From Escherichia coli (GTDB taxonomy: Bacteria > Pseudomonadota > Gammaproteobacteria > Enterobacterales > Enterobacteriaceae), in NCBI RefSeq assembly GCF_030384885.1, contig NZ_CP128613.1: DNA of 64,000 bases; one strand, written 5' to 3'. A model generated the notes under the pieces. That model did no database searches. It saw nothing but the letters and a program-made list of their open reading frames with translations, and was not told the origin of the DNA. A program made the position numbers and the translations under genes. Each line of letters begins with the position of its first letter. Position 1 is the first letter of the stretch. Positions 25,424 to 41,282 of this stretch are shown here, in pieces.

Positions 25424-27184
25424 ATGACGCAAACATTTATCCCCGGCAAAGATGCCGCCCTGGAAGATTCCATCGCTCGCTTCCAACAAAAACTTTCAGA
25501 CCTTGGTTTTCAGATTGAAGAGGCCTCCTGGCTGAATCCCGTGCCTAACGTCTGGTCAGTGCACATTCGCGACAAAGAGTGCGCACTGTGTTTTACCAAC
25601 GGTAAAGGCGCAACCAAAAAAGCGGCGCTGGCATCTGCCCTCGGTGAATATTTCGAGCGTCTGTCTACCAACTACTTTTTTGCTGATTTCTGGCTGGGCG
25701 AAACCATCGCCAACGGTCCATTCGTGCATTATCCCAACGAAAAATGGTTCCCACTGACCGAAAACGACGATGTACCAGAAGGGCTGCTCGATGACCGTCT
25801 GCGCGCATTTTACGATCCGGAGAATGAACTGACCGGCAGCATGCTGATTGACCTACAATCTGGTAACGAAGATCGTGGTATTTGCGGTCTGCCGTTTACG
25901 CGCCAGTCCGACAATCAGATCGTTTATATTCCGATGAATATCATTGGTAACCTGTACGTTTCTAACGGTATGTCCGCTGGCAATACCCGAAACGAAGCAC
26001 GCGTTCAGGGGTTGTCCGAAGTTTTCGAACGCTACGTGAAAAACCGCATTATTGCTGAAAGCATCAGCCTGCCAGAGATCCCGGCAGACGTGCTGGCGCG
26101 TTATCCAGCGGTGGTTGAAGCGATCGAAACACTGGAAGCGGAAGGTTTCCCGATCTTCGCTTATGATGCCTCGCTTGGCGGCCAGTATCCGGTGATCTGC
26201 GTGGTACTGTTCAATCCAGCTAACGGTACCTGCTTTGCCTCTTTCGGTGCGCATCCTGATTTTGGCGTAGCACTGGAACGTACCGTGACCGAGCTGCTGC
26301 AAGGTCGTGGCCTGAAAGATTTGGATGTGTTTACTCCGCCAACCTTTGATGATGAAGAAGTTGCTGAACATACCAACCTCGAAACGCACTTTATCGATTC
26401 CAGCGGTTTAATCTCCTGGGACCTGTTCAAGCAGGATGCCGATTATCCGTTTGTGGACTGGAGCTTCTCAGGCACCACGGAAGAAGAGTTTGCTACGCTG
26501 ATGGCTATCTTCAACAAAGAAGATAAAGAAGTTTATATTGCCGATTACGAGCATCTGGGCGTTTATGCTTGCCGTATTATCGTGCCTGGCATGTCCGATA
26601 TTTATCCGGCTGAAGATCTGTGGCTGGCGAATAACAGTATGGGCAGCCATTTACGTGAAACGATTCTTTCGTTACCAGGCAGCGAGTGGGAAAAAGAAGA
26701 TTACCTGAACCTCATCGAGCAACTGGATGAAGAAGGTTTTGATGACTTTACCCGCGTGCGTGAGCTATTGGGTCTGGCAACCGGGCCGGATAACGGCTGG
26801 TACACTCTGCGTATCGGTGAATTAAAGGCTATGCTGGCGCTGGCTGGTGGCGATCTGGAACAGGCTCTGGTCTGGACTGAATGGACGATGGAATTTAACT
26901 CATCAGTGTTCAGTCCGGAACGCGCCAACTATTATCGCTGTCTGCAAACGTTGTTATTACTGGCACAGGAAGAAGACCGCCAACCACTGCAATATCTGAA
27001 TGCCTTCGTTCGTATGTATGGCGCAGATGCCGTAGAAGCCGCCAGTGCGGCAATGAGCGGTGAATCGGCGTTTTATGGCTTGCAACCCGTAGATAGCGAT
27101 CTGCACGCGTTTGCTGCACATCAGTCGTTGTTGAAGGCCTACGAAAAGCTGCAACGCGCCAAAGCAGCATTCTGGGCAAAATAA
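25424..27184 (+). CDS. ycaO: YcaO-domain protein (ribosomal protein S12 methylthiotransferase accessory factor)
   Basis: Track ORF starts at TTG 25391; start taken at ATG 25424 (MTQTFIPGKDAALEDS..., 586 aa). Confidence 0.9.
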   Translation: MTQTFIPGKDAALEDSIARFQQKLSDLGFQIEEASWLNPVPNVWSVHIRDKECALCFTNGKGATKKAALASALGEYFERLSTNYFFADFWLGETIANGPFVHYPNEKWFPLTENDDVPEGLLDDRLRAFYDPENELTGSMLIDLQSGNEDRGICGLPFTRQSDNQIVYIPMNIIGNLYVSNGMSAGNTRNEARVQGLSEVFERYVKNRIIAESISLPEIPADVLARYPAVVEAIETLEAEGFPIFAYDASLGGQYPVICVVLFNPANGTCFASFGAHPDFGVALERTVTELLQGRGLKDLDVFTPPTFDDEEVAEHTNLETHFIDSSGLISWDLFKQDADYPFVDWSFSGTTEEEFATLMAIFNKEDKEVYIADYEHLGVYACRIIVPGMSDIYPAEDLWLANNSMGSHLRETILSLPGSEWEKEDYLNLIEQLDEEGFDDFTRVRELLGLATGPDNGWYTLRIGELKAMLALAGGDLEQALVWTEWTMEFNSSVFSPERANYYRCLQTLLLLAQEEDRQPLQYLNAFVRMYGADAVEAASAAMSGESAFYGLQPVDSDLHAFAAHQSLLKAYEKLQRAKAAFWAK

Positions 27185-27192
27185 AATCAAAT

Positions 27193-27211
27193 AGCCTACG
27201 CAATGTAGGCT
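27193..27211 (+). terminator. Putative hairpin terminator downstream of ycaO
   Basis: agcctac-gcaat-gtaggct hairpin 9 nt after the ycaO stop; the T-tract is weak. Confidence 0.45.
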
Positions 27212-27515
27212 TAATGATTCGTCTGAGTTATATTACGGGGCGTTTTTTTAATGCCCCGCTTTACATATATTTGCATTAATAAAATAATTGTAATTATAAA
27301 GTTAAATATAGGTAATTTGTATTTAATAAATACGATCGATATTGTTACTTTATTCGCCTGGTGCTCCCTTTTAATTAACTGTTTTAGCGGAGGATGCGGA
27401 AAAAATTCAACTCATTTGTTAATTTTTAAAATTTATTTTTATTTGGATAATCAAATATTTACTCCGTATTTGCATAAAAACCATGCGAGTTACGGGCCTA
27501 TAAGCCAGGCGAGAT

Positions 27516-27529
27516 ATGATCTATATCAA
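27516..27529 (+). promoter_or_regulatory. FNR-type binding site in the focA-pflB promoter region
   Basis: aTGATctatATCAA matches the FNR consensus TTGAT-N4-ATCAA at 9 of 10 positions; a TAGTAT -10-like hexamer at 27552..27557 puts the site near -41.5 of a start about 26 nt upstream of the focA GTG. Confidence 0.6.
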
Positions 27530-27589
27530 TTTCTCATCTATAATGCTTTGTTAGTATCTCGTCGCCGACTTAATAAAGAGAGAGTTAGT

Positions 27590-28447
27590 GTGAAAGCTGA
27601 CAACCCTTTTGATCTTTTACTTCCTGCAGCAATGGCCAAAGTGGCCGAAGAGGCAGGTGTCTATAAAGCAACGAAACATCCGCTTAAGACTTTCTATCTG
27701 GCGATTACCGCCGGTGTTTTCATCTCAATCGCATTCGTCTTCTATATCACAGCAACCACTGGCACAGGAACAATGCCCTTCGGCATGGCAAAACTGGTTG
27801 GCGGCATTTGCTTCTCTCTGGGGCTGATTCTTTGTGTTGTCTGCGGAGCCGATCTCTTTACTTCCACAGTGTTGATTGTTGTTGCTAAGGCGAGTGGGCG
27901 CATCACCTGGGGTCAGTTGGCGAAAAACTGGCTAAATGTCTATTTTGGCAACCTGGTCGGCGCACTGCTGTTTGTACTTTTAATGTGGCTTTCCGGCGAG
28001 TATATGACCGCGAATGGTCAATGGGGACTAAACGTCCTACAAACCGCCGACCACAAAGTGCACCATACTTTTATTGAGGCCGTCTGCCTTGGTATCCTGG
28101 CAAACCTGATGGTATGTCTGGCAGTATGGATGAGTTATTCTGGCCGCAGCCTGATGGATAAAGCGTTCATTATGGTGCTGCCGGTCGCGATGTTTGTTGC
28201 CAGCGGTTTTGAGCACAGTATCGCAAACATGTTTATGATCCCGATGGGTATTGTAATCCGCGACTTCGCATCTCCGGAATTCTGGACCGCTGTCGGTTCT
28301 GCACCGGAAAATTTTTCTCACCTGACCGTGATGAACTTCATCACTGATAACCTGATTCCGGTTACGATCGGTAATATTATCGGCGGTGGTTTGTTGGTTG
28401 GGTTGACATACTGGGTCATTTACCTGCGTGAAAACGATCACCATTAA
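27590..28447 (+). CDS. focA: Formate channel FocA (FNT family)
   Basis: Track ORF 398 aa is over-extended; start taken at GTG 27590 (VKADNPFDLLLPAAMAK..., 285 aa) preceded by aaagagagag; polytopic membrane protein. Confidence 0.9.
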   Translation: MKADNPFDLLLPAAMAKVAEEAGVYKATKHPLKTFYLAITAGVFISIAFVFYITATTGTGTMPFGMAKLVGGICFSLGLILCVVCGADLFTSTVLIVVAKASGRITWGQLAKNWLNVYFGNLVGALLFVLLMWLSGEYMTANGQWGLNVLQTADHKVHHTFIEAVCLGILANLMVCLAVWMSYSGRSLMDKAFIMVLPVAMFVASGFEHSIANMFMIPMGIVIRDFASPEFWTAVGSAPENFSHLTVMNFITDNLIPVTIGNIIGGGLLVGLTYWVIYLRENDHH

Positions 28448-36185: not shown

Positions 36186-36499
36186 GAATTAAAACCGTGA
36201 GGAAGTTCAAATTTCATGCGCATCATGCCACCGCCAAAAACATTGTCAATGGGTGAAAATACGCGCATATCGCAGCTGAGGTATTATCGATTTATATTAC
36301 TCATTCATAACGCTAATGCTGGAGAGACGATTAATCTCATCTGATTGTTTTTATTGATCTAACACAAATTTCATACGCTTCGTTCAGTCGAAAAATTTCA
36401 TGGTCACAGCAAACTCATATTTCCCGTCTATGCTTTCAGAGCAATGCATCGCGTCTGACCGATTTCAGACGTACCGCTGACTCTCGAAAGGAGAAGAGG

Positions 36500-41268: not shown

Positions 41269-41282
41269 TTGTTCGGTATCAA
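41269..41282 (-). promoter_or_regulatory. FNR-type site in the dmsA promoter
   Basis: Minus strand reads TTGATaccgAACAA, the TTGAT-N4-ATCAA pattern with one mismatch in the right half, about 175 nt upstream of the dmsA ATG; dmsABC is an FNR-activated anaerobic operon. Confidence 0.6.

Follow-up and report, generated by a model that had tools for sequence, protein, structure and literature searches.

The 405-bp spacer between ycaO and focA is, with a probability of roughly 93%, the classical multi-promoter control region of the focA-pflB operon (formate channel and pyruvate formate-lyase). This control region, its FNR site and the GTG start of focA are real, strongly conserved and already known. 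They lie in a window of 64 kb (the whole stretch of DNA analysed), whose origin from the Escherichia coli chromosome is given by identity and annotation. Sawers and co-workers reportedly described the E. coli focA-pflB region between 1989 and 2006, with promoters P6, P6A and P7 and control by FNR, ArcA, IHF and NarL; these promoter names, as well as the IHF and NarL footprints, presumably belong to the region found here. The region represents textbook combinatorial anaerobic regulation, with FNR, ArcA, IHF and NarL acting on multiple promoters. Its confirmation adds no new biology. The sequence-only reading of the locus was accurate to the base, all four of the facts it stated being correct, coordinates included, and the follow-up places upstream elements which that reading could not locate.

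In RefSeq, an identical E. coli record has ycaO stopping at 27184 and focA starting at 27590. The spacer has the same length in K-12 MG1655, and its GC content is 30.9%, compared to about 50% for the flanking genes. The long AT-rich region ahead of focA that had been described from the letters is thus borne out in length, composition and boundaries. Conservation exceeds 95% over 27514-27610. A set of 72 species was chosen via a conserved FocA peptide located 18 codons into the gene; counts from this set overstate independence because the species are related. Three different secondary sources provided the start sites used. The present analysis itself shows sequence and positions, the matrix rank, conservation and geometry; for FNR/ArcA occupancy, start sites of transcription, 30S binding and dependence on FNR, it relies on the literature. 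The features are collected in Table 1.

Table 1 Features of the ycaO-focA spacer and of focA, in window coordinates
Feature	Position	Strand	Evidence
ycaO-focA intergenic region, focA-pflB promoter-regulatory region	27185..27589	.	RefSeq annotation, composition
Perfect 7-bp inverted repeat AGCCTAC-GCAAT-GTAGGCT just after the ycaO stop	27193..27211	+	fold, conservation
TATATT, -10-like hexamer of the far-upstream promoter (candidate P7), start G 27242	27229..27234	+	EcoCyc TSS, sigma70 peak
ycaO intrinsic terminator hairpin CGGGGCGUU / AAUGCCCCG	27236..27258	+	fold, covariation
sigma70-like TTTACA-17-AATAAT	27260..27288	+	only match of promoter scan
ArcA direct-repeat array, 2 SNPs relative to K-12 (27300, 27310)	27277..27330	+	published site
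Perfect ArcA box AGTTAATTAA (pattern WGTTAATTAW)	27371..27380	-	consensus scan, 0 mismatches
Upstream Shine-Dalgarno GGAGGA (uSD), -201 to -196 from GTG	27389..27394	+	preprint, duplex energy, conservation
ArcA-box-like TGTTAATTTT	27417..27426	+	consensus scan, conservation
Predicted IHF core AATCAAATATTTA (pattern WATCAANNNNTTR)	27449..27461	+	exact consensus match, centre ~-109 from P6 start
FNR site ATGATCTATATCAA, class II site of P6	27516..27529	+	matrix, ChIP-seq, conservation
TATAAT, -10 of the overlapping FNR-independent promoter, start A 27553	27539..27544	+	published TSS, conservation
TGtTAGTAT, extended -10 of FNR-dependent P6	27549..27557	+	sequence, conserved spacing, published -40.5
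Weak Shine-Dalgarno GAGAGAG, ending 6 nt before GTG	27577..27583	+	duplex -4.9 kcal/mol
Out-of-frame GUG-UGA (start, then stop at once) overlapping the true start	27588..27593	+	sequence, conservation
focA coding sequence, GTG start, 285 codons + stop	27590..28447	+	RefSeq, PDB 3KCU, conservation

The FNR-like palindrome aTGATctatATCAA lies exactly at 27516-27529 and agrees with 9/10 positions of the consensus TTGAT-N4-ATCAA. Matches to this consensus with at most one mismatch are not significantly enriched in the window (4 vs 2.5 expected), and the palindrome might be a chance match in AT-rich DNA or a CRP site, as TGTGA-N6-TCACA matches 27515-30 with 3 mismatches. Nevertheless, a matrix made from 62 published ChIP-bound FNR sites, with focA excluded, ranks it first among the ~64,000 positions of the window (16.7 bits, runner-up 14.1). 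The T-A/G-C positions that discriminate between the two regulators are of the FNR type (TTGAT, not GTGA), and the site is kept in 72/72 species, its first base being invariably A. The published FNR site, at 953,750 with a score of 14.37, lies beneath an FNR ChIP-seq peak, the centre of which (953,741) maps to 27538 (PMC3688515). A CRP site or a chance match is very improbable on this evidence. Apart from the FNR site, the CRP consensus scan returned just two matches, each with 3 mismatches.

The same study places focA-pflB in its "directly activated" FNR category, with the site at -40.5, and reports an anaerobic rise in sigma70 occupancy (PMC3688515). The anaerobically induced sigma70 ChIP peaks of that dataset map to 27584 and 27247. 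Downstream of the FNR site, the TAGTAT at 27552-27557 is directly preceded by TGn, forming an extended -10. From the FNR centre (27522.5) to the last T of TAGTAT (27557), the distance is 34.5 bp in 68/68 species carrying the element; with a start at 27564, FNR is thereby centred at -41.5, a class II geometry. The implied P6 start is 27563/27564, with a leader of 26-27 nt. The sequence-only reading had proposed an FNR-type site here and a TAGTAT hexamer placing it near -41.5. The matrix scan it suggested, once run, gave 27516-27529 as the best match of the window, and the hexamer is confirmed by the spacing and by the published -40.5. Under anaerobiosis, [4Fe-4S]-FNR would bind ATGATCTATATCAA, whose centre is 41.5 bp ahead of the P6 start, and recruit RNA polymerase to the extended -10 without a usable -35. 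The FNR ChIP paper counts two focA sites at low threshold (PMC3688515). No second site above 4 bits was found in the spacer with the FNR matrix, and the best remaining candidate, CTGAGTTATATTAC at 27223-36, considered as an FNR site of the far-upstream promoter, was rejected, as it scores 3.7 bits and has a left half that differs from genus to genus (CTGGG, CTACG).

P6 is overlapped by a second promoter, whose perfect TATAAT at 27539-44 was overlooked in the sequence-only reading. We take this promoter, with its start at 27553, to be the P6A of Kaiser and Sawers from 1997. The start site published at 953,726 corresponds to 27553; its leader is 37 nt long, and the upstream sequence agrees (PMC3415461, supplement). 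The -10 is TATAAT in 60/72 species and TATACT in 7, and the left half of the FNR site (ATGATC, 27516-21) occupies the -35 position of this promoter. The FNR site could accordingly be mainly an operator, repressing the TATAAT promoter instead of activating transcription: it is found at ~-30 relative to 27553, over the -35 of a promoter with a widely kept TATAAT, and 27553 is the only focA start recovered genome-wide (PMC3415461). Against this, focA-pflB expression and sigma70 occupancy go up anaerobically in an FNR-dependent manner (PMC3688515), and the invariant 34.5-bp distance to TGtTAGTAT fits class II activation. Repression as the main function is a plausible minority reading; the operator role is more fittingly regarded as a promoter switch that adds to activation than as an alternative to it. 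Because the FNR site covers the -35 of the 27553 promoter, FNR binding should move initiation from this oxygen-independent promoter to P6, presumably by occlusion.

Upstream of these promoters, ArcA sites were sought as (T)GTTAA direct repeats with 11-bp phasing or as WGTTAATTAW boxes. The published ArcA site, 953,949-954,002 with 4 repeats, equals 27277-27330 (PMC3798270, supplement), and the ArcA ChIP peak at 953,965 maps to 27314 (PMC3798270). The core of the array, TTGTAATTATAAAGTTAAAT, is conserved. Boxes with at most one mismatch number 4 in the consensus scan vs 0.86 expected (P ~0.02). The perfect box is represented by TTAATTAAC in 53/72 species, and one-mismatch boxes occur at 27300 and 27417, the latter within a highly conserved A/T block (27404-27445) which also flanks the IHF core. 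The ArcA repeats are located downstream of the 27242 start, an unusual placement for an activator.

As for IHF, 0.07 core matches are expected in the spacer. The predicted core, preceded by the A/T-rich tract AAAATTTATTTTTATTT, is kept at the same position in 44/72 species. Sirko et al. are said to have reported in 1993 a single IHF site between P6 and P7. The TACTCCG at 27460-66 is presumably the NarL heptamer candidate of Kaiser and Sawers from 1995; TACYYMT-like matches to the NarL heptamer are no commoner than in shuffles. Transcription of focA-pflB from several FNR-, ArcA- and IHF-dependent promoters, given in the earlier reading as established knowledge, is supported by FNR ChIP (PMC3688515), by the ArcA data (PMC3798270) and by the conserved IHF consensus. 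The further upstream elements it expected within 27230..27500 are now placed (27242 start, ArcA repeats and boxes, uSD, IHF core), the ArcA and IHF scans it proposed having found consensus matches at 27300, 27371-80, 27417-26 and 27449-61. The IHF core at ~-109, the ArcA boxes and repeats at ~-140 to -290 and the far-upstream promoter would together provide the ArcA/IHF-dependent part of the induction, in which DNA bending may play a role.

This far-upstream promoter, predicted as TAGGCT-17-TATATT, would start at ~27242 and produce a 348-nt leader. The EcoCyc start 954,814, given with a 348-nt leader, maps to 27242 (10.1101/2025.04.04.647229, supplement), and the second sigma70 peak mentioned above, at 954,032 in v2 coordinates, maps to 27247 (PMC3688515). 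The TATATT is part of the near-invariant motif CTATATTACGGGGC, found in 50/72 species, and GTAGGC is kept across genera at a fixed spacing from it. The right arm of the 27193-27211 inverted repeat overlaps the -35 position TAGGCT (27206-11). A genomic-SELEX study lists the TTTACA/AATAAT pair, a candidate promoter further downstream, for the focA/ycaO spacer (PMC3946193).

The promoter candidate is intertwined with the end of ycaO. The segment 27186-27265 folds with z = -5.4, and the inner stem of the ycaO terminator shows compensatory changes, 15 and 14 sequences being altered on both sides in a 31-species alignment. A T-run follows the stem in most genera and is degenerate in E. coli (GCTTTACATATATTT); the near-invariant CTATATTAC directly abuts the stem. 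The 27242 start falls in the 5' arm of the hairpin. It is possible, if rather doubtful, that the far-upstream focA promoter is built into the ycaO terminator and that promoter choice sets both the mRNA level and the FocA:PflB translation ratio. If true, 27242 transcripts would lack the 5' arm and could form no terminator hairpin, ycaO read-through would be stopped, and only the long 27242 transcripts would bear the upstream SD boosting initiation at the weak GUG.

The GTG at 27590 had been presented as the only start giving FocA a sensible N-terminus. The start itself stands (285 aa, conserved and found in the PDB). Its being evident from this strain does not, because the frame is open for 121 codons upstream. 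The product of the GTG 27590 frame is identical to residues 1-285 of PDB 3KCU, and the PDB FocA constructs start with MKADNPF. The start codon is GTG in 70/72 species, with one ATG and one ACG, the latter in an endosymbiont, and codon periodicity starts after it. The predicted N-terminal peptide from the GUG start is (f)MKADNPFDLLLPAAMAK. Moreover, a tRNAi-dependent 30S toeprint was reported at the focA start region (2025 preprint, 10.1101/2025.04.04.647229).

The open frame would allow a longer FocA, initiated at an in-frame upstream codon such as ATG 27251 (ORF 27251-28447, 398 aa), in which case much of the regulatory region would be coding. The in-phase frame is stop-free over its 121 codons, the other two frames containing 13 stops each, and equal openness was reached in only 2/20,000 shuffles. 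However, in K-12 the open stretch measures 76 codons, and other species range from 5 to 79. In Kluyvera and Klebsiella, in-frame stops close the frame 5-12 codons ahead of the GTG; among genera, it is also shifted by 1-2-nt indels that fall between FNR site and start codon. These stops and indels just upstream of the GTG exclude a longer FocA. In addition, codon periodicity is absent upstream of the GTG, the predicted extension is of low complexity and rich in I/L/N/F, and promoters and mapped starts lie inside it. With neither openness, frame nor sequence conserved, the N-terminally extended FocA was rejected, its probability being as good as nil.

A shorter FocA of 271 aa would result from initiation at the first in-frame ATG, 27632 (Met15). 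ATG is a better start codon, and an older annotation gives the K. pneumoniae ortholog as 816 bp vs 858 bp (PMC3415461). Nonetheless, the 72 species conserve residues 2-14 (KADNPFDLLLPAA) at the protein level while third positions vary, and 70 of them keep the GTG itself; SD-like sequence is absent ahead of 27632, and the solved structures use residues 1-285. Toeprints with 30S and tRNAi were obtained at the annotated start, and mutation of the GAG-SD abolishes expression (10.1101/2025.04.04.647229). The Met15 start, rejected on conservation, toeprints and PDB structures, is quite improbable. FocA translation most probably begins at GUG 27590 behind the weak GAGAGAG SD.

The GUG codon itself is reported, by Suppmann and Sawers in 1994, to keep FocA low. 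It is only one of several layers behind the low level of FocA relative to PflB. The other layers are the weak GAGAGAG SD, the GUG-UGA overlap, a required uSD ~200 nt away and pflB-only transcripts. The 5' ends of the pflB-only transcripts are inside focA. Mutating the GAGAGAG SD abolishes 30S binding and expression, and the supplement of the same preprint points out the GUG-UGA overlap (10.1101/2025.04.04.647229). The uSD is the core of the "focA-213" upstream ribosome-binding site, at which 30S binding is tRNAi-independent and mutation leads to a ~10-fold loss of focA-lacZ (10.1101/2025.04.04.647229). It forms the strongest anti-SD duplex in the leader, -9.5 vs -4.9 kcal/mol at the true start. 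It is present on the long leader from the far-upstream promoter alone, P6 and P6A transcripts being without uSD. On this leader, the strong uSD (GGAGGA, -201) acts as a 30S landing site boosting initiation. GTGTGA is kept in 65/72 species and a 5-mer SD at the uSD position in 37/72, vs a background of 0.2%; along with the GUG (70/72), these frequencies are compatible with a selected translational design.

RNA structure was considered as well. Compared to shuffles, the focA initiation region has less structure (z = +1.2 and +1.4). A small GUUAGU/GCUGAC hairpin with the GUG in its loop is seen in the centroid fold; it shows no variation within Enterobacteriaceae and is missing from Pantoea, which leaves no basis for a covariation test. 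A CUCC/GGAG hairpin masking the uSD was rejected (z = 0.14, mixed covariation in the alignment). The search for structured RNA with the Rfam 15 covariance models produced four chance-level hits (E 0.3 to 1), far below the gathering thresholds, and the fold of the 399-nt leader is not significant (z = -1.6); a structured leader RNA or riboswitch was rejected.

The locus is now tied to a very recent result, the requirement of a 30S-binding upstream SD for focA expression. This link makes an old question more tractable, namely why FocA is made far below PflB from one operon. Furthermore, focA starts with GTG almost throughout Enterobacterales, a clean case of a weak start codon being selected for.

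Compared to known systems, the closest is the focA-pflB region of K-12, which is the same locus. The sequence of 27362-27627 is identical in both, a stretch covering the FNR site, both -10 elements, the IHF core, the uSD and the GTG. Four SNPs distinguish the spacer of the window from that of K-12 (27220, 27300, 27310 and 27361). Two of them fall within the published ArcA repeat array (AAGGTTAAATATCGG -> AAAGTTAAATATAGG), and one SNP abolishes the in-phase TGA of K-12, extending an accidental open frame from 76 to 121 codons. The product of the window is also 100% identical, over residues 1-285 and without any difference, to the FNT-family channel FocA (PDB 3KCU, 3Q7K, 3KLY).

The class II FNR promoters of dmsA, narG, yfiD and nirB have their site at -41.5, as focA P6 does (-40.5/-41.5), and share with it a TTGAT-N4-ATCAA-type site, the lack of a recognisable -35 and the anaerobic sigma70 rise. 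In contrast to these promoters, the focA site begins with A and not T (invariantly in 72 species) and at the same time provides the -35 region for an overlapping TATAAT promoter, and focA lies within a 400-bp IHF/ArcA architecture with a second start ~320 bp upstream. As for translation, upstream 30S "standby" or uRBS sites are known from tisB, focA-213 and skp, the latter two from the 30S-seq preprint. Like them, the window has an SD-like GGAGGA ~200 nt upstream of a weak GUG initiation region, and it carries, with no difference, the very focA-213 site of that preprint (10.1101/2025.04.04.647229).

The region is the known focA-pflB regulatory region itself rather than a relative of it. A 601-base query across the feature matched 5,425 of 5,426 complete E. 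coli genomes, with 100% identity in strain 2013C-4282, whose RefSeq record supplies the gene boundaries tabulated below. Gene order is identical in K-12 MG1655, and the ycaO-focA gap likewise measures 405 bp. The spacers differ at four positions (27220, 27300, 27310 and 27361), and from 27362 through the start codon there is no difference from K-12. At 30.9% GC, against about 50% on either flank, the spacer is the AT-rich stretch that the sequence-only reading had taken for the focA-pflB regulatory region, and annotation, published FNR and ArcA sites and conservation all support that interpretation. Published coordinates were placed by equating window position 27590 with K-12 954,466 (genome version 3) or 953,689 (version 2).

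Five of the query matches sit on records labelled plasmid. In the complete genome of strain hubt-sl (NZ_CP104206.1), just the ycaO part of the query (18%) is left and the focA promoter region is gone, a pattern to be expected if focA-pflB had been deleted by engineering. The mechanical ORF of ycaO starts at TTG 25391 (597 aa) and the RefSeq gene at 25424 (586 aa). Rfam gave no match to the region.

Features of the ycaO-focA spacer and its flanking genes (window positions)
Feature	Position	Basis
ycaO, end	27184	RefSeq annotation
Spacer	27185-27589	RefSeq annotation
Candidate distal promoter and overlapping terminator	27205-27258	Conservation, folding
Predicted ycaO terminator (third hairpin)	27236-27258	Folding
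TTTACA-17-AATAAT	27260-27288	SELEX, promoter scan
Four-repeat ArcA site	27277-27330	Coordinate transfer (PMC3798270)
Likely ArcA boxes	27371-27380 and 27417-27426	Site sequence
Upstream Shine-Dalgarno GGAGGA	27389-27394	Duplex with 16S 3' end
IHF site	27449-27461	Site sequence, conservation
FNR site	27516-27529	Weight matrix, ChIP-seq
TATAAT (P6A)	27539-27544	Conservation, mapped start
TAGTAT (P6)	27552-27557	Conservation, geometry
focA	27590-28447	RefSeq annotation
pflB, start	28502	RefSeq annotation

Conservation was followed in a one-genome-per-species set of Enterobacterales. Searching with a degenerate nucleotide pattern encoding FocA codons 19-31 (AEEAGVYKATKHP) gave 87 loci, and the 72 with upstream sequence sufficient for all tests are the species of all counts. 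Since these species are related and were chosen via a conserved peptide, the counts show constraint rather than independent events. Column conservation exceeds 95% almost without break over 27514-27610; more conserved islands lie at 27289-27306, 27343-27353, 27370-27380 and 27404-27463.

Matches to the FNR consensus with at most one mismatch numbered four in the window against 2.5 expected by chance, a weak argument taken alone. Therefore, a symmetric weight matrix was built from 62 sites under ChIP-seq peaks, the focA site being excluded (Myers et al. 2013, PMC3688515, Table S6). The motif aTGATctatATCAA, proposed from sequence as an FNR-type site, is confirmed: it scored 16.7 bits, more than any other position of the 64-kb window (runner-up 14.1). 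Its reverse complement, TTGATATAGATCAT, is listed at 953,750 (PatSer 14.37) below an FNR ChIP-seq peak whose centre (953,741/953,746) maps to 27533-27538 (PMC3688515). The same study counts focA-pflB as 'directly activated by FNR', puts its top site at -40.5 and reports that sigma70 occupancy rises under anaerobic conditions. ATGATC-N4-TCAA is found in all 72 species, 65.5-72.5 bp ahead of the start codon, its first base always being A and not the consensus T. A T at 27516 would strengthen the FNR site and, with it, the overlapping -35 of the TATAAT promoter; as A is nonetheless found in every one of these species, the sub-optimal base appears to be selected.

Elsewhere, the FNR matrix gave matches at 41269-41282 and 36354-36367. 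The match TTGTTCGGTATCAA (10.7 bits) lies at the position expected for the FNR site of the dmsA promoter when K-12 coordinates are transferred. The second-best match in the window, TTGATCTAACACAA (14.1 bits), maps near the ycaC/ycaD spacer and does not appear among the published FNR sites compared.

Two overlapping promoters lie next to the FNR site. TAGTAT, directly preceded by TGt, forms an extended -10 element, and a start at 27564, 7 nt past its last T, sets the FNR centre (27522.5) at -41.5, where the sequence-only reading had put it. TAGTAT occurs in 68 of the 72 species, always with 34.5 bp between the FNR centre and the last T. A perfect TATAAT, unmentioned in that reading, stands 13 bp further upstream (60/72 species; TATACT in 7/72). 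For focA, Kim et al. (2012, PMC3415461) placed the transcription start at 953,726, which gives a leader of 37 nt; since their printed upstream sequence ends in ...TATAATGCTTTGTTA, this start is A 27553, and it is served by TATAAT. The FNR-dependent start, served by TGtTAGTAT, is implied by the -40.5/-41.5 position to be 27563/4. Class II FNR activation of P6, the FNR-dependent proximal promoter, is supported by geometry and conservation from this analysis and by occupancy and FNR dependence from the literature. In P6A, the TATAAT promoter, the -35 position (27516-27521, ATGATC) coincides with the left half of the FNR site. Because the site covers this -35 and suits P6, bound FNR should, on this geometry, activate P6 and occlude P6A. 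Kaiser and Sawers reportedly described overlapping promoters 6 and 6A in 1997, which agrees with such occlusion.

At the distal end, 27186-27265 folds well beyond shuffled sequences (z = -5.4) into three hairpins, the third being the predicted intrinsic terminator of ycaO. Among 31 species, both partners of the inner stem pairs had changed in 15 and 14 sequences; most genera carry a T-run after the stem, this run being degenerate in E. coli. The sequence CTATATTAC, which hardly varies, abuts the stem on its upstream side, and TAGGC(T/G), also conserved, stands another 17 bp up. TAGGCT-17-TATATT reads as a candidate promoter, possibly P7 of the classical papers, that would start some 7 nt further down, at G 27242. 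This is also the position of the second published start, EcoCyc 954,814, used with its 348-nt leader in a recent preprint (10.1101/2025.04.04.647229). Sigma70 peaks at 953,695 and 954,032, both about 6-7-fold up anaerobically (PMC3688515), map to 27584 and 27247, the latter 5 bp from this start. As 27242 falls within the stem's 5' arm, an RNA initiated at this position is unable to fold into the terminator hairpin, which suggests that the candidate promoter would yield transcripts escaping the terminator that overlaps it. TTTACA-17-AATAAT, listed for this spacer by SELEX (Shimada et al. 2014, PMC3946193), was the sole match of the promoter scan; it would start near 27295, a poorer fit to the sigma70 peak than 27242. 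The FNR matrix found no site near either distal candidate, the best other score in the spacer being 3.7 bits, unconserved.

Further sites suspected within 27230-27500 could also be placed. In the ArcA ChIP data of Park et al. (2013, PMC3798270), a peak at 953,965 transfers to 27314, and these authors also report a four-repeat ArcA site at 953,949-954,002. The sequence TTAATTAAC, a perfect ArcA box when read on the opposite strand, is present in 53/72 species, and the IHF core WATCAANNNNTTR keeps its position in 44/72. ArcA-P at the repeats and likely boxes, with an IHF-induced bend, may stimulate transcription. Conservation is very high in the A/T block 27404-27445, AAAAAATTCAACTCATTTGTTAATTTTTAAAATTTATTTTTATTTGG, of which an ArcA-like box and the flank of the IHF core account for just part; ATTCAACTC within it has no assigned factor.

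The proposed GTG start of focA at 27590 also held. Its 285-codon frame gives a product identical to the E. coli FocA crystal structure PDB 3KCU over residues 1-285, and GTG is kept in 70/72 species, the exceptions being ATG (Mixta tenebrionis) and ACG (a Sodalis endosymbiont). The GUG is said, by Suppmann and Sawers in 1994, to limit FocA. The peptide KADNPFDLLLPAA after GTG is conserved, and from roughly the ninth codon on most variation falls at third positions. A 398-aa ORF from ATG 27251 exists because the focA-phase frame (27227-27589) is open for 121 codons in this strain, in 31%-GC DNA with 13 stops in each other frame, an openness equalled by 2 of 20,000 shuffles. This ORF is excluded, because the footprint alignment has no codon periodicity upstream of GTG, a stop closes the frame 5 codons before GTG in Kluyvera and 12 codons before it in Klebsiella and Raoultella, and differences of 1-2 nt among genera in the FNR-to-GTG distance would throw any reading frame out of register. 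The stretch is open for 76 codons in K-12 (27361 gives TGA) and 5-79 elsewhere, and is therefore treated as a non-coding accident. In-phase stops are depleted over the proximal ~37 codons in many genera, for which shared conserved promoter sequence may account in part. A start at ATG 27632 (Met15) was also rejected: it would remove the conserved segment and has no preceding Shine-Dalgarno (SD) sequence. This start corresponds to the 816-bp focA of an older K. pneumoniae annotation (PMC3415461); as Klebsiella loci keep GTG and the 14 upstream codons, that call is likely a start-codon mis-annotation.

The GAGAGAG SD before GTG is weak, pairing with the 16S 3' end at -4.9 kcal/mol. The strongest of the leader is GGAGGA (-9.5 kcal/mol), the upstream SD (uSD) at the core of the published 'focA-213' site. 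In the preprint, a 30S-seq study, this site bound 30S in vivo as well as in vitro in the absence of initiator tRNA, its mutation lowered focA-lacZ about 10-fold, and mutation of the GAG SD abolished expression (10.1101/2025.04.04.647229). The study also describes an out-of-frame GUG two bases upstream of the focA start, immediately followed by UGA; GTGTGA is found in 65/72 species. A 5-mer SD lies within -215 to -188 in 37/72 species, versus 0.2% of other 27-nt leader windows. The uSD is present only on transcripts from the far-upstream start and absent from the 26-nt P6 and 37-nt P6A leaders. FocA output would be kept low by the GUG start, the weak SD and the GUG-UGA overlap, with the uSD of the long leader partly compensating; sequence and conservation from this analysis and function from the preprint support this scheme. 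Folding against shuffles gave no significant structure in the leader. A small hairpin, GUUAGU / GCUGAC (27584-27601), would place the GUG start in a loop of 6 nt. In Enterobacteriaceae codons 2-4 do not vary, third positions included, and the hairpin is without covariation.

To the sequence-only reading the analysis adds a second, overlapping promoter (TATAAT), positions for the IHF and ArcA sites, the uSD and the distal promoter-in-terminator arrangement. The region is already known, and only the possible coupling of promoter choice, terminator bypass and uSD-dependent translation is mildly novel.
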